From: Nitrosopumilus sp.
GTDB lineage: Archaea > Thermoproteota > Nitrososphaeria > Nitrososphaerales > Nitrosopumilaceae
Length of the DNA stretch: 64,000 bases
NCBI GenBank assembly: GCA_965207075.1
Contig: CBDBLO010000002.1
Coordinates: forward strand, 2,214-66,213
Direction of reading: 5' to 3'
Numbering within the stretch: the stretch's first letter is position 1; the number at the start of each line of letters is the position of its first letter. A program made the position numbers and the translations under genes. Below, one piece after another: positions 2,950-58,543 of this stretch. The notes beneath the pieces were generated by a model. It did no database searches and was not told the DNA's origin. It saw only the letters and a list, made by a program, of their open reading frames with translations.

Positions 2950-3951
2950 ATGGCAGACGGCAGAAGCAGCGGGACGCAGCAGCAGGTGTACATGACCACG
3001 CCGGCCAGGACCGGCAAGATGATGGCCATAATGCTGGGCATATGCATAGTTGGAGGCGCCATCTTCTTCGGGATGTGGGACTATTGGATATCCGAGCCGG
3101 CCCCGATCGTGGCGATAATGGCGGCCTCCACCGCGGCGCCCGTCGCGGAGCAGGCGGAGCAGACGGGCCAAACCATAACCTCGGACCTAGTCTTCATCGA
3201 GGCTGACGACTTTATCACGATGGCCTTCAACGCGCTGCCCGGCGAGGAGGGCAACAACCCGACCATAAACATGAACGTGGGCGACAAGGTCGTGTTCAAC
3301 GTGGTAAGCGACGGCATCTCGCTGCACGCGTTTGGCGTCACGCAGGAGGAGGAGGGCACCGCTGGCATCATACCCGGCACCGAGATCGGCAGCCCCAACA
3401 GCCCGATGCTGAAGGGGGACAGCGGCACCGCTGAGTTCGTGGCCGGCGAGGAGGGCACCTACTATTACATATGCACGGTCCCCGGGCACAGGGCACAGGG
3501 CATGGAGGGCACCATTGTGGTGGGCCCCGCGCCCGAGTCTGGGGACGACGGCAGCGGAGGAGGAGGAGGAGAGGCGGCCCCCCCGACCGGCATATCGCAC
3601 GAGTTTGAGTTTGACTATGTAGAGTCCGACGACTTTAGGACGTTCGGGTTCAACGGGCTTGAGGGCGAGGAGGGGGCAAACCCCGAGATTGTGGTCAACT
3701 CCGGCGACGAGATTACGGTCACCACGGTCAACGTGGGCGTCTCGTTCCACTCGTTCGGGGTGGTGGCAGACCCCGCCGACTTTGCAAACGTGCTGTGGGG
3801 CTCGGAGATAGGGTCCATGACAAGCCCGCTGAAGAACGGCGAGAGCGGCTCAGTCACGTTCACGGCCGGGGCGCCGGGCAAGTACTATTACATCTGTACC
3901 GTTCCAGGCCACGCCCTGCAGGGGATGCAGGGGGTCCTGACTGTCGAGTAG
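2950..3951 (+). CDS. Membrane-anchored two-domain blue (type 1) copper protein
   Basis: N-terminal TM helix; two cupredoxin domains each with H...YYYICTVPGH..(Q)GM. Confidence 0.9.
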   Translation: MADGRSSGTQQQVYMTTPARTGKMMAIMLGICIVGGAIFFGMWDYWISEPAPIVAIMAASTAAPVAEQAEQTGQTITSDLVFIEADDFITMAFNALPGEEGNNPTINMNVGDKVVFNVVSDGISLHAFGVTQEEEGTAGIIPGTEIGSPNSPMLKGDSGTAEFVAGEEGTYYYICTVPGHRAQGMEGTIVVGPAPESGDDGSGGGGGEAAPPTGISHEFEFDYVESDDFRTFGFNGLEGEEGANPEIVVNSGDEITVTTVNVGVSFHSFGVVADPADFANVLWGSEIGSMTSPLKNGESGSVTFTAGAPGKYYYICTVPGHALQGMQGVLTVE

Positions 3952-3953
3952 CC

Positions 3954-4583
3954 TTGGCTGCCATAAAGTACCTTGCACTATCGAGCATGATCGTGCTGTA
4001 CTCGCTCATGTTCCTTGGCGGGTACATATCGGCCGCGGGCCTGGGGCTCACGTGCCCCGAGTGGCCGCTGTGCCCGGACGGCATAATGCCCTCAGAAGAA
4101 TACCTGATAGAATGGATACACAGGCTGGCCGCCGCCACCACGGGCGCGCTCGTGGTCGCCACCATGATCGCCGGCTTCCTGCACAGGGGGGCCGATGCCA
4201 AGATCAGGGTCACGAGCTCGCTTGCGACCGTCTTTGTCATAGTCCAGATCACGCTCGGGGCGCTCGTCATCGACCTAAAGCTGCACGCCGTCTTGGTCGC
4301 GATACACCTGGGGATAGGGATACTGCTGTTTGCAATGGTGCTGCTGACGACGCTGTTTGCGTTCCGCATACAGTCGCCCGCAAAGGCCGTTGCGCATGGC
4401 CGCAGCGGTGGTAGCGGTAGCAGCAACGGCAACAATAGCAGCAGTGACGACAACTATGGCACTGGCGACAGTGGCGATAGCAGCAACGGCAACGCCAACC
4501 GCAACGGCCGCGGACTACGCCGGAACTCCGGCGGCGGCGCCAAGATGATGCAGGATGCCGCAACGGCGGACGTTGCGCACTGA
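3954..4583 (+). CDS. ctaA: Heme A synthase (COX15/CtaA family), short form with a low-complexity C-terminal tail
   Basis: GLTCPEWPLC, EWIHR and HAVLVAIHL motifs; TTG start at 3954 is in frame with ORF 3795..4583. Confidence 0.85.
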   Translation: MAAIKYLALSSMIVLYSLMFLGGYISAAGLGLTCPEWPLCPDGIMPSEEYLIEWIHRLAAATTGALVVATMIAGFLHRGADAKIRVTSSLATVFVIVQITLGALVIDLKLHAVLVAIHLGIGILLFAMVLLTTLFAFRIQSPAKAVAHGRSGGSGSSNGNNSSSDDNYGTGDSGDSSNGNANRNGRGLRRNSGGGAKMMQDAATADVAH

Positions 4584-4648
4584 CTAGGTACTGGAGGGAC
4601 GACGACGGCCGCCGCCGCCGCCGGCCCCGCACGCATACCACATACAGA

Positions 4649-5278
4649 TCACCGGCCAAACGGAGGATGCCTGCCGCCGGCCCCGCCGTCTCCTCCCCCC
4701 TCTCGCCGCCGCCATCGCCGCTGCATCTTCGGAAGGTAGATGTACGCCATCACGCCTGCAAAGCAGAACGCCCCGACTGTAATGGATATGATAAAGATGT
4801 ACCCAAACGGGCTCTGCGTGCCCATGTTGAACGTATACGTGGTTACCCCGGGCTTGTCCACCATGTCATAGAGGTCCACCTTTACGATGTGGTTTCCCTG
4901 ATACCGCCACGTGTGCCCAAAGTCCCAGTGCCCCCCCTCTATGGCCGTGGGCGGGACCGCGTCCACCTGCTGCCCGTTGTAAAAGAACCTGATTCCCATC
5001 GTGAACCTGTCTACCTCCTCAAAGTCCGTGTCGGTCACCCGGACCAGAAACATCGACGGCTCGTCGATCTGGGGAAACTCGGGGGCCGTCGCAACCTGCA
5101 CCCTGTACCCCGCCATAAACTCCTCGGCCGAGTTGAACATGGAGTGTCCCGACGCCTCCTGCGCGCCCGGCACCAAGGCGCACGCCGCGCACAGCAGAGC
5201 GATCGCGGCCACGCCCCGGACGAGGGCGGACCCCGGGGCCTTCTTCTTCTGCCGCCCTCCCGCCGGTTTTGTCATCAT
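4649..5278 (-). CDS. Secreted/membrane-anchored hypothetical protein
   Basis: Signal-like N-terminus, beta-rich middle, C-terminal TM helix (YIFIISITVGAFCFAGVMAYIYL). Confidence 0.75.
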   Translation of the reverse strand: MMTKPAGGRQKKKAPGSALVRGVAAIALLCAACALVPGAQEASGHSMFNSAEEFMAGYRVQVATAPEFPQIDEPSMFLVRVTDTDFEEVDRFTMGIRFFYNGQQVDAVPPTAIEGGHWDFGHTWRYQGNHIVKVDLYDMVDKPGVTTYTFNMGTQSPFGYIFIISITVGAFCFAGVMAYIYLPKMQRRWRRREGGGDGGAGGRHPPFGR

Positions 5279-5331
5279 ACTCTGGGATCGTCTTCAAAAG
5301 CTTTAAATCCTTATTGGCAAGAGTCGGATCG

Positions 5332-5943
5332 TTGACACTTGTCACGAAATCCACCGAGATAAAGGTGCCAGTCGACAGCGTCTTTACCTATTTTGCGCGG
5401 CCCGAGCACGTCTCGGATCAGATGAAGAGCGAGACGGTGGGCATGACCGTGATCCCCATGGACATCAAGGAGGGGATGGGGGTCGGAACCACGTTTCGCG
5501 TGATAGGCGACTTTGGAGGCAAGCGGCTGGAATGGGACTGCGAGACCACCGAGTTTGTGCGCAACAAGCGCATATCCGCAGAGCAGACTGAGGGCCCGTT
5601 CAAGAAATGGGCCATCACAAACGAGTTTGAGGAGCTCGGGGCCAACCTGACCAGGGTTACCATGTCAGTGGACTATGAGATGCCCTTTGGCCCGCTGGGC
5701 GCCATCCTGAACAAGGCAAAGTTTGCAAAGTCCGCCGAGAGGGGCATGGAGACGGCCCTGTACAGCGTCCGCGGACTCTTGGAGGGCAACGGCTCGATTC
5801 CCGTATACATCACGCTTGACGCGTACCAAAAGCTGCTCGAGGAGAAGAAAAAGATGAACGACGTGCCGGTCTCCACCGCGCTGACGGCCATCATACAAAA
5901 GTACAACCAGATAGAGCAGAAAGAGCTTGCCGTCACAGGATAG
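5332..5943 (+). CDS. SRPBCC/polyketide cyclase family protein
   Basis: START-like pattern (EIKVPVDSVF...GVGTTF...GPFKKW...TRVTMSVDYE); TTG start ~25 bp after TTTAAAT (5302). Confidence 0.8.
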   Translation: MTLVTKSTEIKVPVDSVFTYFARPEHVSDQMKSETVGMTVIPMDIKEGMGVGTTFRVIGDFGGKRLEWDCETTEFVRNKRISAEQTEGPFKKWAITNEFEELGANLTRVTMSVDYEMPFGPLGAILNKAKFAKSAERGMETALYSVRGLLEGNGSIPVYITLDAYQKLLEEKKKMNDVPVSTALTAIIQKYNQIEQKELAVTG

Positions 5944-6078
5944 GCAGCGCCGTGCGTTTCTGACGTTTTCAAACCGCGAGTATCTAGCCCGCTTGCGACG
6001 CCCGTGTCCCGCCTCCGGCGTCCCGCGCCCCGGCGGATCTGAAGATTATAATAGTAATTTTGCGCCGTCTGTAACGGT

Positions 6079-6152
6079 GGGTCTATGGCGCAGCCAGGTA
6101 GCGCTCAGGACTCTTAATCCTGCTGTCGTGGGTTCGAATCCCTCTAGACCCG
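6079..6152 (+). tRNA. tRNA-Lys(CTT)
   Basis: Acceptor GGGTCTA/TAGACCC, D-stem GCGC/GCGC, anticodon stem CAGGA/TCCTG around CT-CTT-AA, T-loop TTCGAAT; no intron, CCA not encoded. Confidence 0.95.
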
Positions 6153-6185
6153 CTCCTATCGTAGCCTAGCGCGCCCCGAACCCGG

Positions 6186-6953
6186 TCATATGCTGCGCCG
6201 GTGCAGGTACAACGCGTAAATGACGATGGCGTGGGACGCGTTCCACAGCGGCCCCGACACGTCGCCAAACTCGTACGCGCCAAGCGTGTACGCATAGTTG
6301 TACGCCAGATCCCCGACCGTTCCGACCGCGATGCCGGCAAGCAGCGCCCGCCATGCCGGCGTCATGGCGGTGCCGACAAACACCGAAAACGCCACCAGGG
6401 TCAGCGCAAGAACCACCGAGGACGCGCCGACAAACACCAGGTTGTAGTAGAACAGGCCCGCCGGCGCATGGTCGACGCTGTGCAGGAACATTGCAGAGTA
6501 TGCCAGCACGATCAGCGCCGGCACCGATGCCAGCATCCCCTTCTGCCGCACGGTGAACCTATCTGCAAAGTACCTCACGTTGATTGTGATGTGGGCTGCC
6601 AGCAACACATACGCGCAGAGAAAGAGCGCCTCGCCGGCCCGTGCGAACTGCGCAAGCCCGTGCGCGTCGACAAAGTGGAAAAATATGACCTCGCCTGCAA
6701 AGACCGCCGCATACGACGCGCCCAGTACGAGAAACGACCTGCCAAAGACCCTGGAGTTGCCGTAGTGCCTCGCCGTCACAAGGCAGAACGCCGCGACCGG
6801 CAGCGGGGCCAGCACGATTGACAGCCTGATCACCATGTCGTTGCCGCCGCCCGCGGCATGGTGCACCGCCGCCGCATGCAGCACAAACGATCCGCACAGT
6901 ATGGCAACCGGGACTAGCGCGTCCCTCCTTCCCACCGTCCTTGACATCATCAT
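6186..6953 (-). CDS. Multi-pass membrane protein (sensor-like, ~7 TM)
   Basis: Series of hydrophobic helices; overlaps the upstream gene by 4 bp (ATGA). Confidence 0.75.
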   Translation of the reverse strand: MMMSRTVGRRDALVPVAILCGSFVLHAAAVHHAAGGGNDMVIRLSIVLAPLPVAAFCLVTARHYGNSRVFGRSFLVLGASYAAVFAGEVIFFHFVDAHGLAQFARAGEALFLCAYVLLAAHITINVRYFADRFTVRQKGMLASVPALIVLAYSAMFLHSVDHAPAGLFYYNLVFVGASSVVLALTLVAFSVFVGTAMTPAWRALLAGIAVGTVGDLAYNYAYTLGAYEFGDVSGPLWNASHAIVIYALYLHRRSI

Positions 6954-16163: not shown

Positions 16164-16504
16164 GGGCGTCACTCCACGCCTCCAAATAATAACCATCCAC
16201 GCGGCGCGGGGAGGCCGCCGAGGCCCAATTCGGTTGTTAGTCAGTCCTCCAGCGGCCTGCCATCTTCTGCTAGCCTGAAACCCAGCAGCTTTACCTGGTT
16301 TCCCTCCAAGAGCTGAAAGTACAACCAGCATACGCGATTGCTCACGTAATAGGTCTCATTCTTAGGACAGGCGACTACCGATGTCAGTCCGTCAATACCT
16401 GAAGCCTCCTCGATGTCGTGTATGAGCGACATGACAATCGCCCTCCTCGGATACATGTGGCTTTCCAGATTGCCGTCAAAAGCTGGATCGCTCTGTGATT
16501 TTCA

Positions 16505-16672
16505 TCAGTATCCGAGTGACTCGTGCTTTTGTAATATCTCTTTGTAGCTGGTCTTGATCGGCTTGTTATTCTTCCTTAGTATGTTGTTCACGAACGCCGT
16601 ATCCTCTGGCGACCAGCTCATTCCCTTCTCCGTCACGCCATCCGTCCGGCTCCTTGGTTGTGTGTCAGTCAT
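16505..16672 (-). CDS. Small hypothetical protein (possible antitoxin)
   Basis: MTDTQPRS...HESLGY in a lower-GC patch; its stop overlaps a downstream ATG (TGATG). Confidence 0.35.
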   Translation of the reverse strand: MTDTQPRSRTDGVTEKGMSWSPEDTAFVNNILRKNNKPIKTSYKEILQKHESLGY

Positions 16673-16870
16673 GTTATGTGATGCAGCATTTTGATATATA
16701 ATAGTTATCAACCTTATTGACGCTACGGTGGCGGCATCTAGAAACCCCAACAACGTCAGCCCAAATATGGGGCTTGTGTCAGTTGCCATATCCCCCTCAT
16801 GCCTAGCAACCGAACTGGAAGCGGAATCCACAAAATCAAGCTTTAATTGTGAGGGGACGGGACTCTGCTC

Positions 16871-17293
16871 ATGTCAGACGACGGCAACGGCGCCGCGGCC
16901 AAGGAGTGGGACGAGCTGTGGGGGGAGTATTCAAGGTCCCTTGAGAACTGGAAGAGGATGTACGAGCAGGCCCAGGCCGCAAGCGCCGAGATGCAGTCCA
17001 GGTTCAACGACGTCTGGAAGAAGACGACGGTGGACACCAGCTCCGACACGATGAAGCTCTTTGCGGAGAACTGGCAGGACGCCATGCGCGACGCGGGCAT
17101 AAAGTCGTTCAGGGAGTTCAGCGAGGGATGGCAGAGGGCCCTCAGCGAGTCGGGAACCGGCGGGTTTACGCAGTTTGCAGAGAACTGGCAAAAGTCCCTG
17201 GGCACTGCGGGCCTCGAGCAGATGAATTCGTACGGCGAGATGCTCAAGCGGTTTGCCGAGACCTGGAATGCGATGTGGCCGAAGAGGGTCTGA
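16871..17293 (+). CDS. Helical repeat protein (F-x-E-x-W-Q repeats); C-terminus rewritten by a TnpB element insertion
   Basis: FAENWQ/FSEGWQ/FAENWQ/FAETWN repeats; TTTAAT box upstream; stop TGA lies inside the element's left TIR. Confidence 0.75.
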   Translation: MSDDGNGAAAKEWDELWGEYSRSLENWKRMYEQAQAASAEMQSRFNDVWKKTTVDTSSDTMKLFAENWQDAMRDAGIKSFREFSEGWQRALSESGTGGFTQFAENWQKSLGTAGLEQMNSYGEMLKRFAETWNAMWPKRV

Positions 17294-18869
17294 TACGGAA
17301 TTCAAAAAATGCCCTAAATAGGGTTGGTGAGAAATTCATTTTCCACCACCCGCAAGCGGCGGGCGGATGGCACACCCTCGGGTCGATTCGGGATTCGCGC
17401 CTGAACGTGCTCCGAGTTTTAAAAATTTTAGGTACAATGCCTCAGTCGATCCGGGTGTGTGCGCGGCGGGCGCGCAGATAAAGATATAACGGTAATTTAC
17501 CGTACAAATACTATGTTTACGTACCGAAAGTACCGCGTGCGCGCGTTGCTGACCGCGGAGCAGAGGGGGGAGATCCGGCGCCTGCGCGACGGACAGCGCC
17601 AGGCATACAACTGGGCCGTCTCAAGGCTGAGGGAGGGGTGGCCCCGGAACGACGAGTACGGGCTCTACAGGGAGCTCACCGCACAGAGGAGCAGGCACGA
17701 CTGGCTCCGCGCCGTCCCGGCTGTCATACAGCGCGCCGGAATCCGCGACGCGTTCACGGCCTCCAGGCTGTCGGCGCGGTACGGCCGCGGCGAGCCAAAG
17801 TACCGCTCCAGGAAACGCGGCCCGGGCGCGCTCAGGTGCCCGTTGGCGCCCCGCATGGTGGATCCGTGCCGCATCAGGCTCCCCTGCTTTGGCGCGGTAC
17901 GCGCGTGCATCCCGGATGAGATCATGGAATACGAGCCGCGCGCATACGAGTTCGTCCCGCACAAGGGCGGCTATCTGCTGTACGTGTCGTGCCGCGTCGC
18001 CGTGCAGGGTCAGCGGCCGCCGTCCGACGGGCCGGGCGCCTCGCGCGTGACGGTCAAGGGCGTCGACCGCGGTACGGTCGAGCCAACCGTCGTCGTCACG
18101 CTGAACCCGGACGGCAGCACGAGGAGCAAGGACACGTATGACACGGCGGCGCCCTTCCGCGACGACAGGGCCGGGCATCAGAGGAGGCAGTCCAGAATGA
18201 GCAGGAGGATGAACAGGCGCTCCGGGAGATACAGGCGGCTCCGCGCCAAGACGAGGGGGCAGCTGCGGAGAGTACGAAACCGCCGGACATACGCGGAGTG
18301 CGTGGCCGCAAAGCACGTCGTGGACGACTACAGCCCCCACACCATAGTGCTCGAGAGCCTGAACCTGTCCGGGATGACCCGCCGCGGCGGCCCTTGCAAA
18401 AAGGGCATGAACCGCGAGATGCGCTTTGTCCGACACCATGCAGTCGAGCAGCGCATCCGCAACCGCGCAGAGATGCGCGGGATCCGCGTAACCGCGACCA
18501 GCCCGCATTACACCTCGCAGACATGCTCGCGCTGCGGCCGCGTGGACGCGAAATCCAGGGTCACGCGCGACATGTTCAAGTGCACAGGGTGCCATTACAT
18601 TCAGCACGCGGATGTCAATGCCGCGTTGAACATCGGAAGGCAGGGACTGCCGACGCCTTCTGACGAGGACACGCAAGAGGCAGTCCCCGACGGAGGTTGG
18701 AACCCCTTCGTGAGACGCGAACTGGACGTGCGCCTCAATTGTTTTGTCGAGGGCCCCGCAAGGGGGCGCGAGAACCAAGTGCCTGCACGTCACCTTGCCC
18801 ACATGGGCATGGAGAAAGAACGTCAAAGGACCAATGGGGCCCGCAAGGGCTGAAGTTGGTACCAACCCC
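17286..18869 (+). mobile_element. TnpB-only element 1 with 19-bp imperfect TIRs and a 9-bp TSD
   Basis: TSD GGCCGAAGA at 17277-17285 and 18870-18878; left end GGGTCTGATACGGAATTCA; right end reverse complement GGGGTTGGTACCAACTTCA. Confidence 0.9.
17513..18853 (+). CDS. tnpB: TnpB RNA-guided endonuclease
   Basis: N-terminal HTH (YRVRALLTAEQ); RuvC D (GVDRG), E (VLESL), D (ADVNAA); zinc finger CSRC/CTGC. Confidence 0.93.
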   Translation: MFTYRKYRVRALLTAEQRGEIRRLRDGQRQAYNWAVSRLREGWPRNDEYGLYRELTAQRSRHDWLRAVPAVIQRAGIRDAFTASRLSARYGRGEPKYRSRKRGPGALRCPLAPRMVDPCRIRLPCFGAVRACIPDEIMEYEPRAYEFVPHKGGYLLYVSCRVAVQGQRPPSDGPGASRVTVKGVDRGTVEPTVVVTLNPDGSTRSKDTYDTAAPFRDDRAGHQRRQSRMSRRMNRRSGRYRRLRAKTRGQLRRVRNRRTYAECVAAKHVVDDYSPHTIVLESLNLSGMTRRGGPCKKGMNREMRFVRHHAVEQRIRNRAEMRGIRVTATSPHYTSQTCSRCGRVDAKSRVTRDMFKCTGCHYIQHADVNAALNIGRQGLPTPSDEDTQEAVPDGGWNPFVRRELDVRLNCFVEGPARGRENQVPARHLAHMGMEKERQRTNGARKG

Positions 18870-18925
18870 GGCCGAAGAGCAACTATTAGAGACAAGAATA
18901 AAAGCACCACTATGGTACGCCCGCC

Positions 18926-19723
18926 GTGAGCGAGGAACCGGCGGAGTGCCACATAGAGCTTGAGAGTTTCGAGGATCTGGCAAGGCTTGCGTGCTCGTAC
19001 CAGGCCCATCCGAGGAGGATCTTCAGTTTCGTAAGGGATGACGGTGGCGACGGGGGCGGGAACGGTGCGGACGTAGGCGACGGGGATGGCAACGGCGGTA
19101 ACGGCATCGGCAACAACAGCAGTGGCGACGGGGGCGGCAACAACGACGGAGGCACCCGCGTCGCGGCGACCGTGTTCAACCTAGCAAACACCCTCGTAGT
19201 CATGTACGCCCCGCTTCCAAAGGACGGCAGGTACGTGTCATATGTAATCGACGGAGGAAGGGAGCGCGCCGACGTGGTGGACGCGGCGTCAAATTCCGCA
19301 AGCTATGCGCCCATAATACACGTAAACAGCGAGCCGTGCCTGACGCACATGGAGGCCGACCCGCCGGCAGACGACATACCCGACGTGCTCCACCCGATAG
19401 AGCTTGCGGACCTGGGCAGCCTGGCGAGGCTCACGTACGATCCGGACTTCCCAGACGAGCCGGATCCCGTCATATACGCGGTGCCGGTGGGCGGGCTGTG
19501 GGCCCTGGGGTACGTGGTGGCCTACGACATGGAGGAGTCCCACTACGTGTTCTACCACGTGATGCGCGACGCAAAGCCCGACAAGCCGTTCCTTAGGTAC
19601 GGGCACGACAGGGCGCAGGAGCCCGAACTGTCAGACAGGATAGAGCACGGGTACGTGTACATGCCGATAGTGACCGTCAGGGACCAGCATCCCATCTTCG
19701 GCTTTGACGCGCACCACCGGTGA
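18926..19723 (+). CDS. Hypothetical protein with an internal Gly/Asn/Asp-rich insertion
   Basis: Internal duplication (IELESFEDLARL / IELADLGSLARL); coding-like codon usage. Confidence 0.75.
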   Translation: MSEEPAECHIELESFEDLARLACSYQAHPRRIFSFVRDDGGDGGGNGADVGDGDGNGGNGIGNNSSGDGGGNNDGGTRVAATVFNLANTLVVMYAPLPKDGRYVSYVIDGGRERADVVDAASNSASYAPIIHVNSEPCLTHMEADPPADDIPDVLHPIELADLGSLARLTYDPDFPDEPDPVIYAVPVGGLWALGYVVAYDMEESHYVFYHVMRDAKPDKPFLRYGHDRAQEPELSDRIEHGYVYMPIVTVRDQHPIFGFDAHHR

Positions 19724-27221: not shown

Positions 27222-27292
27222 CAGCTGCCCCTCCAAGACAGCAAGTCGCCGTCCGACAGCCCGACTGTCATGCGGTAACGGGGCGACGTCTT
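27221..27292 (-). pseudogene. Probable C-terminal remnant of an AbiEi antitoxin
   Basis: KTSPRYRMTVGLSDGDLLSWRGS*, with its stop overlapping the toxin ATG (TGATG); cut by element 3. Confidence 0.4.
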
Positions 27293-28778
27293 GGGAATTA
27301 TACGCATTAGTTCATCGCCGTCATTACCGCTGTAATGGCGGCCCCGAACCGAGCATATTTTGGGCGTTGTTTCTCCGCTCCGTTTTGGAGTGGTGACGAG
27401 CCGATGCTTGGTTTTCGCATCCCCCCTCCGCGGGGGAGCCCGCGGCCAAAAACCTGCCGCGGCGCGCGTCCAGTTCGCGCCTCACGAAGGCCATTCCCGC
27501 CTCCGGAGGGCCTGCCTCCTGCGTGGTGTCGGCGGGGCGCAGGCCGGCCCTCCCGATTATTATGGCGGCGCTTACGTCCGCCTGCTGAGTGTAATGGCAC
27601 GACACGCACCTGAACGTGTCCCGCGTCACGCGGGAGTCACTGTCCGTATGGCCGCACCCCGGGCACTTCTGGGACGTGTAGTGTGGCGCGACATGCTCCA
27701 GAACGACCCCCTCCATCTCGGCGCGGTTCCTGATCCTTTGCTCTATGGCGTGGTGGCGCACAAAGCGCATCTCGCGGTTCAGGCCCCTCTTGCGGGAGCC
27801 GCCCCTGCGGGTCATGCTTGATAGCTTGAGATCCTCCATGACGATTGCGCGTGGGCGGCCGGTCAGGCAGATCTCCTTTGCGGCGACGCACTCCGCGTAC
27901 GTGCGGCGGTTGAGAGCGCGCCTGAGCCTTTTGTTGAGCATGCAGAGGTGGTCACGGTACCGCCCGGACCTCCTGTTCTGTTTTGAGAGGCGGCTCTGAT
28001 GCCTTTGGTACGAGGTGCGGCCGTCCTTGAACGCGGAGGCCGTATCGTACGAGTCGGCGGCCAGCGGCCTGCCGCGGAGGTCCAGAGTTACCACAACGGT
28101 GGGCTCGACCGCGCCGCGGTCCACGCCCTTGATCGTCGTGCCGGGGCCCGTAGAGCGGGCGGCGGGAACTCCGACGCGGCAGGATACGTACAGCGTGTAT
28201 CTGTCGCCCACGATCCGGACGAACTCGTACGACCTGGGCTCTCCTGCAAGCAGCGCGTCGGGGACGTCGCACCTGACGGTTCCGAACCGTGGGAGCTTTA
28301 TCAGGCGCCTGTCAACGACGGTGGGCGCCAGGGGACACTTGAGCGCCGCGCCGCGGCCAGATTTTCTGGTCCTGTATCTCAGTTCTGATATGGTGTTGCG
28401 GCCGCGCCTCAGCATTGACTTGGCCGCCGTAAACGCGTCCCTGATTCCGGCGCTTTGGATGGCTCGGGGTACGGAGCGCATCCATTCGTCGCCGCCGCGC
28501 TTGTGCTGGGTGAACCTTGCGGACAGGCCGTACTCGTCGTTGGGATCCCACCCCTCCCTGAGGTTGGAGACGGCCCAGTTGTACGCGTGGCGCTGTCCGT
28601 GTCGCATCCTGGTGACATCCGCCTTCTGCTCCGCGCTCAGGCGGACGGGAACGCGGTACTTTCGATACGTAAACATGAGATTATTACGGTACTATACGGT
28701 AATAACGTTTTCGGGCGGGCAGGCGGCGGGGACAGTGGCAGTAGTGTGGGCGGCAGTGAACTAATGTATATAATTCCC
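27293..28778 (-). mobile_element. TnpB-only element 3 with 22-bp TIRs
   Basis: GGGAATTATACGCATTAGTTCA (27293-27314) vs reverse complement of 28757-28778 GGGAATTATATACATTAGTTCA (20/22); flanks GACGTCTT / GATGTGTT match 6/8 (possible decayed 8-bp TSD). Confidence 0.85.
27324..28676 (-). CDS. tnpB: TnpB RNA-guided endonuclease (divergent paralogue)
   Basis: MFTYRKYRV start; RuvC GVDRG / VMEDL / ADVSAA; CPGC/CVSC zinc finger. Confidence 0.93.
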   Translation of the reverse strand: MFTYRKYRVPVRLSAEQKADVTRMRHGQRHAYNWAVSNLREGWDPNDEYGLSARFTQHKRGGDEWMRSVPRAIQSAGIRDAFTAAKSMLRRGRNTISELRYRTRKSGRGAALKCPLAPTVVDRRLIKLPRFGTVRCDVPDALLAGEPRSYEFVRIVGDRYTLYVSCRVGVPAARSTGPGTTIKGVDRGAVEPTVVVTLDLRGRPLAADSYDTASAFKDGRTSYQRHQSRLSKQNRRSGRYRDHLCMLNKRLRRALNRRTYAECVAAKEICLTGRPRAIVMEDLKLSSMTRRGGSRKRGLNREMRFVRHHAIEQRIRNRAEMEGVVLEHVAPHYTSQKCPGCGHTDSDSRVTRDTFRCVSCHYTQQADVSAAIIIGRAGLRPADTTQEAGPPEAGMAFVRRELDARRGRFLAAGSPAEGGCENQASARHHSKTERRNNAQNMLGSGPPLQR

Positions 28779-28976
28779 GATGTGTTGTTCTGGATCATAT
28801 CCCATAAGACGAGGCATCTAGGGTTATAGCTGTTTTGTTCTTGGAACGAAACTTCCGTTTAAAGGAAGTATTGCTACATAAAATATTACAGCCGGTTGGA
28901 GGGGTAGGTAGCAACGGTGATCACGCGTCCGCCGCTGGCCGGGCCTCGGGGCAGCCGGGCGCCCGCCCCCCTCTCT

Positions 28977-55286: not shown

Positions 55287-56740
55287 CCCCGGGGACGTCC
55301 GGCGCACCCGTGGCCCGGGGATCACGCGCCAGCCCTGTCCCTTAATTCGCGCAACTTTGCAGCGGTATCGGCATTGTCGGCCTCGTGCTTGGATATATGA
55401 TCCCTGTACGCGGAAATTTCGGCCCCAATATCGTCTATCTCCGACGCGTTTGCGGAGTTCGCCTCCCTGTGCAGAGGGGCGTTACATAATCCCAGAAGGC
55501 GCTCTATCTCATGGTCATTGTGCCTCTGGCATTATTCCAACGCGCGTATGTCGCTGTCAATCCCTCGAATCATTTGACCGCTCCTCGTATGATTCCGCAA
55601 GGCGCCTTGCCATCTCGGCCAGTTCGGCGTGTCCCATCTTTTCTGCAAGGTCCCCGACCTTGCGGCACCTGTTGATTTCAAGGGCATAGTTTGCCATGCC
55701 GTATGTCGCGTCGTTCGGCATAAAAATATTGCCGCAGGCAGTCGGTCGCGTACAGGCTGGCCATGCAGAGGGTCAAGAAGTGGTCCGAGGTGGGGTGGGG
55801 GACCACGAGCCGGAAAAGAGGGGCGGCAGGAAAAGGACGCGGGGCCAGAAGATCATTGGGGTGTACGCGGTCTTTGCCACCGACCTTGCCGCGGCGACCG
55901 TGCGGGGCCGCAGGCCGGCAGGCCGTCATGCGCGGCCAGAGAACAGCTCGCGCACCAGGAACACGTGCTCTAGAAGGGCACTGCCCAGCATCTTTTTGCC
56001 AAAGCCGGCCGAGTCCGGGATGTCCCGCACGTATGACGCGGCCCTGCGTCCGGGATCGGGCACGCCGCCTCCACGTATGCTTTTTACCTGCTCCAGTATG
56101 TCATGCAACATGCGCGCCGCCTCGGACTTTGTAACCTCCCCGTCCAGACACCTGCGCACATGCACGGAGTATGCGCACAGCAACAGCAGCACGTCCGTGA
56201 CGTGCTCGGTCTTTCTGTACCTGTGCTTTTTTGCCAGGTACGTCCCCTGAAAGTTGTTGTAGCGCTTGGCCTGCCTGTCAGTGACACTGACTGCGGACTT
56301 TAGGTTCAGGAGCCCGAAAACGGAGCCGGTGACGCTTGCAATAATGTCAGGTATGCCATACCTCGGCTCGCGTGCAAAATGCTCCGTCTTGAAACCAGTC
56401 ATGACCTCAAACGCGCCAAGTGACACTTCAAGATCCCGCCTTGTGGAGGATTTTAACAAAAGACCTAGGTCGTAGACCTGCTTTGCGATCTCAGTCTGCT
56501 TAGAGGGCCGGAGCCCGATCGTCCCAAGCGCCAGGGTCGTAAGCTTGTCGCCCAGCAGGGAGCCCTTCGAGAGTATGCGCATGTCATGGGCGGTCTCGAA
56601 GCCAAAGAGCTCGAACCCGGATCTCTTCAGCTCCGAGTCCGGGTGCACGTCCACATCGCAGAAAAAGTCCACCTTGACATACCTTCTCCCGCCCAGGCAG
56701 GAGTCGTAGTATACCCGGTACGAGACCAGGTTGTCAAGCG

Positions 56741-58217
56741 GGGGTTGGTACGGAATTCAAAAAATGTTCTAAATGGGGGTTGGTGCCAAATTCATTTTCC
56801 ACCACTCGCAAGCGGCGGGCGTGCAGAAAGATATAAACGGTAATTTACCGTACAAATACTATGTTTACATACCGAAAGTACCGCGTGCGCGCGTTGCTGA
56901 CCGCGGAGCAGAGGGGGGAGATCCAGCGCCTGCGCGACGGGCAGCGCCAGGCGTACAACTGGGCCGTCTCAAGGCTGAGGGAGGGGTGGTCCCGGAATGA
57001 CGAGTACGGGCTCTACGGGGAGCTCACCGCGCAGAGGAGCAGGCACGACTGGCTCCGCGTCATCCCGGTTGTCATACAGCGCGCCGGAATCCGCGACGCG
57101 TTCACGGCCTCCAAGCTGTCGGCGCGGTACGGCCGCGGCGAGCCAAAGTACCGCTCCCGGAAGCGCGACCCGGGCGCGCTCAGGTGCCCGTCGGCTCCCC
57201 GCGTGGTGGATCCGTGCCGCATCAGACTCCCCGGCTTTGGCGCGGTACGCGCGCGCATCCCGGAGGAGATCATGGAATACGAGCCGCGCGCATATGAGTT
57301 CGTCCCGCACAAGGGCGGCTATCTGCTGTACGTGTCGTGCCGCGTCGCCGTGCAGGGGCAGCGGCCGCCGTCCGGCGGGCCGGGCGCCTCGCGCGTGACG
57401 GTCAAGGGCATCGACCGCGGTACGGTCGAGCCAACCGTCGTCGTCACGCTGAACCCGGACGGCAGCACGAGGAGCAAGGACTCGTATGACACGGCGGCGC
57501 CCTTCCGCGACGACAGGGCCGGGCATCAGAGGAGGCAGTCCAGAATGAGCAGGAGGATGAACAGGCGCTCCGGGAGATACAGGCGGCTCCGCGCCAAGAC
57601 GAGGGGGCAGCTGCGGAGAGTACGAAACCGCCGGACATACGCGGAGTGCGTGGCCGCAAAGCACGTCGTGGACGACTACAGCCCCCACACCATAGTGCTC
57701 GAGAGCCTGAACCTGTCCGGGATGACCCGCCGCGGCGGCCCTTGCAAAAAGGGCATGAACCGCGAGATGCGCTTTGTCCGACACCATGCAGTCGAGCAGC
57801 GCATCCGCAACCGCGCAGAGATGCGCGGGATCCGCGTAACCGCGACCAGCCCGCATTACACCTCGCAGACGTGCGCGCGCTGCGGCCGCGTGGACGCGAA
57901 ATCCAGGGTCACGCGCGACATGTTCAAGTGCACAGGGTGCCATTACATTCAGCACGCGGACGTCAATGCCGCGTTGAACATCGGAAGGCAGGGACTGCCA
58001 ACGCCTTCTGACGAGGACACGCCGGAGGCAGTCCCCGACGGAGGTTGGAACCCCTTCGTGAGACGCGAACTGGACGTGCGCCTCAATTGTTTTGTCGAGG
58101 GCCCCGCGAGGGGGCGCGAGAACCAAGTGCCTGCACGTCACCTTGCCCACCTGGGCATGGAGAAAGAACGTCAAAGGACCAATGGGGCCCGCAAGGGCTG
58201 AATTTGGTACCAACCCC
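56741..58217 (+). mobile_element. TnpB-only element 2 with 19-bp TIRs and a 9-bp TSD
   Basis: TSD TGTCAAGCG at 56732-56740 and 58218-58226; TIRs GGGGTTGGTACGGAATTCA / GGGGTTGGTACCAAATTCA (17/19). Confidence 0.95.
56861..58201 (+). CDS. tnpB: TnpB RNA-guided endonuclease (close copy of 17513..18853)
   Basis: GIDRG / VLESL / ADVNAA RuvC triad; CARC/CTGC zinc finger. Confidence 0.93.
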   Translation: MFTYRKYRVRALLTAEQRGEIQRLRDGQRQAYNWAVSRLREGWSRNDEYGLYGELTAQRSRHDWLRVIPVVIQRAGIRDAFTASKLSARYGRGEPKYRSRKRDPGALRCPSAPRVVDPCRIRLPGFGAVRARIPEEIMEYEPRAYEFVPHKGGYLLYVSCRVAVQGQRPPSGGPGASRVTVKGIDRGTVEPTVVVTLNPDGSTRSKDSYDTAAPFRDDRAGHQRRQSRMSRRMNRRSGRYRRLRAKTRGQLRRVRNRRTYAECVAAKHVVDDYSPHTIVLESLNLSGMTRRGGPCKKGMNREMRFVRHHAVEQRIRNRAEMRGIRVTATSPHYTSQTCARCGRVDAKSRVTRDMFKCTGCHYIQHADVNAALNIGRQGLPTPSDEDTPEAVPDGGWNPFVRRELDVRLNCFVEGPARGRENQVPARHLAHLGMEKERQRTNGARKG

Positions 58218-58543
58218 TGTCAAGCGGATACGGATTCCGTGGAACGTACTCCTCGCACAGGATTCCGGGCGGGGCGCCGCTTATGCCGCCCATGACGCCC
58301 CTTGTCTCGTCGACGGTCAGCCCTGTCAGAAGGTCAACGTCCACGCTCAGCCTCCTGGCCGCGCCGTCGGCCGTGTGGAACGGCATGCACATGCCCCCCC
58401 CCCTCGTGACGCAGTCCGCCCTCCGCGCTATGCGCGCGTGCACCTCAAAATCCATGATGAATTTTTCAATGGCCAGCTTGTCCCTGAACCCGTACCGTTC
58501 CGATATGGACGAGATGCTGTCCTCCTCAAGCAGCGCGGAATAC

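Follow-up and report, generated by a model that had tools for sequence, protein, structure and literature searches.

Canonical IS200/IS605 and IS607 insertion sequences (IS) combine TnpB with a Y1 transposase TnpA or a serine recombinase and move by peel-and-paste transposition accompanied by TnpB homing. TnpB branches associated with DDE transposases, as well as solo TnpBs whose elements have inverted terminal repeats, have also been described (Altae-Tran et al. 2023, PNAS; PMC10691335), and the element type treated here has been known since 2023. The element under study occurs twice, as copy 1 and copy 2, in a stretch of 64,000 nucleotides from Nitrosopumilus sp. (contig CBDBLO010000002.1, positions 2,214 to 66,213; hereafter the window, to whose first letter all coordinates refer unless another contig is named). 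It shows terminal inverted repeats (TIRs) at both ends of both copies, and the target duplication of copy 2 was verified against empty sites; the architecture of canonical IS200/IS605 elements was not found. Because inverted ends that come with a fixed-length duplication are the hallmark of cut-and-paste transposition of the DDE type, copy 2 can be regarded as a probable non-autonomous transposon of that type with tnpB as its only gene. It landed just upstream of the stop of a conserved host gene and exchanged the last residues of the encoded protein. Our preferred reading, to which we assign a probability of about 0.8, is that of an old insertion with a tolerated exchange of the tail and with a left end that either decayed in place or came from a variant donor.

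The two copies are about 96-97% identical over their common sequence, and in a pairwise alignment the similarity ends precisely at the element boundaries. Both are bordered by perfect 9-bp repeats of the target, whose sequence differs between the copies (Table 1). A 19-nt TIR motif, GGGGTTGGTACSRAATTCA, has six matches in the window, compared with 0.02 expected from shuffles; four of them represent the element ends, and the other two are inner left-end repeats, one in each copy, at a distance of about 35 bp from the left end. Each right repeat is followed by a G, the base with which the left TIR also begins; the true target duplication may therefore be 10 bp long, with the element ends offset by one base. 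The left TIR of copy 2, GGGTCTGATAC, differs from the consensus GGGGTTGGTAC at positions 4, 5 and 8. At the other end, base 18855 of the window, located in the right TIR, is private (G instead of T), a small strain-specific change.

The insertion point lies three codons before the former host stop, so that SNY has been replaced by RV. The open reading frame (ORF) of the host gene now ends in ATG TGG CCG AAG AGG GTC TGA (MWPKRV*), and the contribution of the left TIR to this end, which the initial annotation had claimed, can be read directly in the ORF. When all combinations of the three TIR changes were enumerated, the TGA was made only by G>A at position 8, in line with the earlier claim that one deviation from the consensus creates the stop. 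Joining both flanks via a single 9-mer yields MWPKSNY*, closed by a TAG at 18887-18889.

This unoccupied state exists in nature. The syntenic TARA scaffold L001 encodes cytochrome b, a small ORF, the host gene and a 264-aa gene without the element, and its empty site reads ATGTGGCCCAAGAGCACCTATCAGAGACAGTGA, with a single 9-mer. In the public runs, which are Logan contigs of metagenomes, empty-site contigs were found in X1, X2, X3, X8, X10 and X11; they depart from the window precisely at 17285/17286 and then continue with the right flank. X10 and X11 contain the allele ...AAGAGCAACTATTAGACAAGAATAAAAGCACC, exactly WPKSNY* and including GGCCGAAGAGCAACTATTAG, which, together with the protein P0064, is the pre-insertion end that had been predicted with a TAG at about 18888. 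Other empty alleles encode KTNY*, namely ...AAGACAAATTATTAG in X8 and X11 and ...AAGACTAACTACTAG in X1, X2 and X3. Within a run, depth is usually greater for empty than for occupied contigs (118 versus 25 in X10, 364 versus 67 in X1). As empty and occupied contigs occur in the same runs, the insertion of copy 2 is polymorphic in natural populations. Only two runs, X1 and X3, showed the junction of copy 1, and it is their contigs that are exact matches to the window; with regard to its empty site, the flank was absent or too diverged in the runs other than X1.

All occupied alleles of copy 2 appear to descend from one event. Five metagenome contigs (L008-L012) encode TnpBs that are 98% identical to that of copy 2, and in each of them the element lies at the same site, after the same gene and the same left 9-mer (L011 stops short of the right end), with a left TIR identical to GGGTCTGATAC. 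Occupied contigs of X5, X6 and X8-X12 reveal no differences at 17289, 17290 and 17293, and the same site, duplication and left TIR also occur in occupied contigs of X1 and X3. A 107-bp leader segment is found in every copy at this site, in X11 as a variant that is 6.5% diverged, but not in copy 1. In addition, occupied alleles share a private GGFTQF in the host protein where all empty alleles have GGFAQF, a residue change from A to T. Judging from the common site, duplication, left TIR and GGFTQF, copy 2 is a single insertion that has been inherited since and is fairly old. Copy 1, with its consensus TIRs and without the 107-bp segment, cannot be derived from copy 2 as it now stands, and copy 2 is thus the older, population-wide copy. 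The initial annotation was therefore right to see a second copy that had transposed independently to a different target, given its own 9-bp duplication and the empty alleles with a single 9-mer, but the young age implied by the term "second copy" was wrong.

Gene conversion between the two window copies was also considered as a cause of their common variants, but these are explained equally well as derived states of the L008-L012 clade, so that conversion need not be invoked. The copy in L012 shows, in the part corresponding to window positions 17521-17855, eight clustered variants of the copy-1 type that are not present in the other same-site copies, suggesting that in this strain a copy-1-like element acted as the donor in a gene conversion.

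Table 1. Features of the two element copies and of the host gene in the window.
Feature	Position	Strand	Remarks
Copy 2 of the TnpB-only element	17286-18869 (1584 bp)		between perfect 9-bp direct repeats
Left target-site duplication, copy 2	17277-17285		GGCCGAAGA; encodes part of W-P-K-R; single in empty alleles
Right target-site duplication, copy 2	18870-18878		GGCCGAAGA
Outer left TIR, copy 2	17286-17304	+	GGGTCTGATACGGAATTCA; degenerate, 3 changes from consensus
Inner (subterminal) TIR-like repeat, copy 2	17320-17338	+	3 motif mismatches versus 1 in copy 1
107-bp leader segment, copy 2	17366-17472	+	bounded by GCGGCGGGCG direct repeats (17356-17365, 17463-17472); contains TTTTAAAAATTTT
tnpB	17513-18853	+	446 aa; helix-turn-helix, RuvC motifs, zinc finger; intact ORF
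Candidate omega-RNA scaffold	18660-18869	+	predicted; overlaps tnpB 3' end, reaches right end
Right TIR, copy 2	18851-18869	-	GGGGTTGGTACCAACTTCA; 1 private change; consensus in L008-L010 and L012
Host gene	16871-17293	+	140 aa; conserved in Nitrosopumilaceae; last two codons and stop inside element
TGA now closing the host ORF	17291-17293	+	inside left TIR; made by G>A at TIR position 8
In-frame TAA closing the host ORF if the TIR were consensus	17315-17317	+	same stop position in copy 1 left end
Orphaned former host ORF end	18879-18889	+	..GC AAC TAT TAG (S-N-Y-stop); contiguous with gene in X10 and X11 empty alleles
Copy 1 of the TnpB-only element	56741-58217 (1477 bp)	+	consensus TIRs; without 107-bp segment
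Target-site duplication, copy 1	56732-56740 and 58218-58226		TGTCAAGCG

The host protein ends were read in 25 orthologous sequences, comprising ten Nitrosopumilaceae homologues and 15 members of a 90%-identity cluster. In the ten homologues, which share 53-96% identity, the common core closes at MWPK or MWPR and is followed by one to ten unconserved residues (S, S, H, N, K, NIGLLPEEKE, GSMNKD, AGGFPRE, STYQRQ). Within the cluster, KTNY is the tail of five members, KSSYLRQD of three and KSTYQRQ of two, while KSSYSRQ, KSRY, KTRY, KSNY (P0064) and KRV are found once each; the contig of the KRV member carries the element. Close orthologues without the element hence end in K[ST][NRST]Y, in some cases followed by xRQ(D), as had been expected for KSNY-like ends, and a KRV tail occurs in none of the element-free orthologues among the 25. 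Because the residues past MWPK are free to vary, the change from SNY to RV would have been tolerated. The host gene has survived the insertion, as the initial annotation had proposed: dN/dS ranges from 0.04 to 0.24 among occupied alleles, and the gene is still under purifying selection. Its product is characterised by W-rich F-x-E-x-W-Q repeats and matches no Pfam family, and matches in NCBIfam were sub-threshold only; an AlphaFold2 model is all-helical, albeit of low confidence (predicted local distance difference test score 50).

Some smaller differences surround this gene. Position 17269 of the window is T, in contrast to C in every other allele, occupied or empty, and represents another small strain-specific change. 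The old stop TAG of the window corresponds to CAG in L001, which means that the length of the host-gene tail shifts via gain and loss of stops. Past the old stop, the intergenic region is 161 bp shorter in the window (18890-18925) than in L001 (6435-6595), and the same shortening relative to L001 is seen in occupied alleles as well as in the SNY and TNY empty alleles. Upstream, a lower-GC segment of about 600 bp (16222-16829) lies between the small ORF and the host-gene promoter. L001 and L009-L012 have only 29-47 bp in its place; it contains two minus-strand ORFs (71 and 108 aa) without a significant Pfam match and may be another inserted remnant.

How the left end of copy 2 came to carry the stop can be explained in different ways. 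The initial annotation had suggested selection after insertion: an element arriving with a consensus TIR would have given the host protein the mildly harmful tail RGWYGIQKMP, and G>A at position 8 would have been fixed for restoring a short one. It is true that this change alone creates the TGA, that it is present in all occupied alleles, that three TIR changes within 11 bp stand against a difference of 2.6% in the coding sequence, and that the tails of close orthologues have three to seven residues. With a consensus TIR, however, the frame (KRGWYGIQKMP) closes regardless, nine codons later, at the TAA listed in Table 1, and the length of the resulting tail falls within the natural range of one to ten residues, distant orthologues having unconserved tails of seven to ten. 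The stop does not depend on the changes at positions 4 and 5, and the inner repeat, which lies outside the host frame, has acquired three derived changes as well; mismatches to the 19-nt motif in the outer TIR and the inner repeat amount to 3 + 3 in copy 2 versus 0 + 1 in copy 1. Between the copies, the initial ~71 bp of the leader diverge by about 14%, compared with 2.6% in the coding sequence, and the left TIR is hence not exceptional in its surroundings. Comparing the left TIRs of the copies, as had been recommended, showed the same three changes in every occupied allele and the consensus in copy 1; occupied alleles with an intermediate TIR were found neither in L008-L012 nor in the runs, so that there is no variation to test and positive evidence for selection is nil. 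In view of the back-up stop, the variable tails, the changes of the inner repeat and the missing intermediates, selection on the new stop is unsupported; we judge it quite improbable and the stop to be a by-product of the insertion. More room has to be given to a variant left end that already existed in the donor, for instance in a subfamily characterised by the 107-bp leader together with a diverged left inverted repeat, in which case the TGA came ready-made and nothing changed later. Insertion sequences commonly have unequal left and right inverted repeats. The left end of copy 2 differs from copy 1 as a block, including the TIR, the inner repeat, other leader positions and the 107-bp segment, and all occupied alleles, even the diverged X11 variant, share the same left junction. 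On the other hand, no second site with such an end was detected in the five contigs and 12 runs, and the changes reduce the resemblance of both left repeats to the right TIR of the same element, as decay would do. This origin is possible, but we are inclined to doubt it. As to an artefact, in which the 9-mers and TIRs would be due to chance or misassembly and the gene would always have ended in KRV, the repeats are indeed short, and nothing else speaks in its favour. A perfect 9/9 repeat at two independent copies with homology stopping exactly there, the number of TIR motifs given above, the empty sites in independent assemblies and the restriction of KRV to an element-bearing contig have already refuted this explanation, and we rejected it as virtually impossible.

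Under the preferred reading of an old, tolerated insertion, copy 2 would have been mobilised in trans by a DDE transposase encoded elsewhere; we infer this because the element encodes no transposase itself. It would have settled three codons before the stop, where the conserved core ends with ...MWPK and later residues are free to vary, and would since have been passed on as a single haplotype block, both by inheritance and by recombination, with empty alleles coexisting. The three outer-TIR changes, presumably neutral, would be part of a wider decay of the transposase-binding repeats of the left end or, alternatively, would have been brought in by a variant end of the donor. The tnpB ORF remains intact, and so does the right end next to the putative omega-RNA, whereas constraint would be lost on the left transposase sites of a resident copy. 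Several points weigh against this reading. Six derived changes in the 38 bp of left-end repeats are more than expected from a synonymous divergence of about 5%, and this excess may reflect something beyond drift, be it weak selection or an older, long-diverged donor end. The aromatic ten-residue tail RGWYGIQKMP is at the upper limit of natural tails, and weak selection for an earlier stop may have acted. Furthermore, the population data all come from assembled contigs, which lose rare variants. No partner transposase with GGGGTTGGTAC ends was detected in the window, nor was a matching end elsewhere in it, and at the loci inspected no DDE gene was located beside TnpB relatives, save for an unrelated IS1595-type gene in L010.

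The tnpB translation displays the RuvC motifs GVDRG, LESLN and HADVNAALNI together with a C4 zinc finger (CSRCG...CTGCH). It scored 142.9 bits against the NCBIfam model guided_TnpB (NF040570; cut-off 100), 67.6 against the Pfam family Cas12f1-like_TNB (cut-off 26.3; 1e-18) and 23.2 against HTH_OrfB_IS605 (cut-off 21), and the part that spans RuvC-III and the zinc finger aligns to TnpB and Cas12f chains of known structure in the PDB. Within the element, tnpB is the sole family-matched, conserved ORF, with a long antisense ORF (17621-19009) lying outside the scan. The gene is intact in all seven copies, and dN/dS is mostly 0.1-0.5, indicating constraint; the few pairs with values above 1 are based on very few substitutions. 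At the right end, the final ~210 nt of the element form a stable fold (z = -2.7) in which nine of 35 consensus pairs show compensatory changes (six sequences; relatives at 57% identity), and Rfam gave no match in 16800-19100. Considering its fold and covariation, this region is probably the omega-RNA scaffold, whose guide would begin at 18870, within the duplicated 9-mer. A target-adjacent motif was not derivable from the two or three usable junctions (ATGT and AGGT preceding the element).

Scans of genome and metagenome collections with TnpB returned only relatives at 57-61% identity, which are uninformative on the left TIR of copy 2. These relatives have related inverted ends, GGTGCTGGTGCGAATTCG and GGTACTGCTGCGAATTCG, and one of them is flanked by an 8-9-bp duplication. 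In L010, a different inverted-repeat element (positions 3861-6344 of that contig; end GGGGATTATATACATGGG...) is located 8 bp past the right duplication of the TnpB element, where it breaks the old ORF end; it carries or adjoins the IS1595-type DDE gene (5545-6344), and its end resembles the TIR of a third TnpB element of the window (27285-28786). Solo members of the TnpB family with 54-58% identity were found in L013 (3141-4484 and 6001-7404) and L014 (6001-7392). Their surroundings are defence-island-like, with a STAND/AAA ATPase, a D12 methyltransferase and a Dnd/PAPS-reductase cluster. Inverted ends of its own (..CGTTTCCAAT..) are present in at least one of them, and an adjacent transposase was seen at none.

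Region-by-region divergence was determined between the window and each occupied relative, L010 and L011 being included without their right-flank regions. A block extending from 16950 to 19499, which covers the 3' part of the host gene, the element and about 600 bp to its right, shows a divergence of 0.3-1.9%, in comparison with 3.5-8% in the far flanks. In the far-left flank, L001 with its empty site differs from the window by 3.9% and the occupied strains by 4.6-8.1%, so that four occupied strains are more distant from the window than L001 is. Together with the low-divergence block, this means that the occupied allele has crossed backgrounds by recombination. TnpB-assisted homing might be thought to drive this spread, the nuclease cutting empty alleles while mismatched ones act as resistant, and it would allow a DDE-type element with a decayed left end to persist and introgress across strains. 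The predicted guide starting at 18870 (GGCCGAAGAGCAACTATTAG) would match the SNY empty allele perfectly and would mismatch the TNY empty alleles, which dominate the window's own samples, at positions 10-11. However, X10 and X11 contain occupied alleles side by side with empty ones that match the guide perfectly, which weighs against an efficient drive, and a moved block is also produced by ordinary recombination. We consider both the spread by homing and the persistence of the element through it unlikely.

What makes the locus informative is that wild archaeal populations from sponge, coral and marine metagenomes display the occupied allele alongside several empty alleles, and with them the exact sequence that preceded the insertion. 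It indicates that TnpB elements are able to sit at the end of a gene for a long time without killing it, that tnpB and the guide-side end may be kept while the left transposase sites decay, and that diverged strains have come to share the occupied allele as a block that moves between them. The locus is thus a usable test bed for the question of whether TnpB homing acts on target-duplicating transposons.

Insertions of IS or miniature inverted-repeat transposable elements (MITEs) at gene 3' ends, supplying a new tail and stop, are represented by the Correia elements of Neisseria, the palindromic elements of Rickettsia and archaeal MITEs. As in those cases, the terminus of copy 2 is read in frame and contributes both the final codons and the stop of a gene that remains functional. 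Unlike them, copy 2 is a coding element of 1.6 kb, and the pre-insertion allele persists in the same populations. The exchange of the tail is an ordinary by-product of insertion, though unusually well documented, with no sign of adaptation.

With the canonical IS200/IS605 and IS607 elements, copy 2 shares the TnpB family, including RuvC triad and zinc finger, and a structured 3' region that fits an omega-RNA. IS200/IS605 elements have asymmetric hairpin ends and produce no duplication, whereas here inverted repeats of 19 bp and a duplication of 9 bp are present and tnpA is missing. The closer counterparts are the systems of Altae-Tran et al. (PMC10691335), in which tnpB likewise lies within an element with symmetrical inverted terminal repeats and its 3' end is less than 250 bp from the transposon end, compared with 16 bp here. 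Like their solo TnpBs, our element is a solo copy presumably using a transposase made elsewhere. It differs from those systems in its thaumarchaeal (Nitrosopumilaceae) lineage, and the correspondence is one of architecture.

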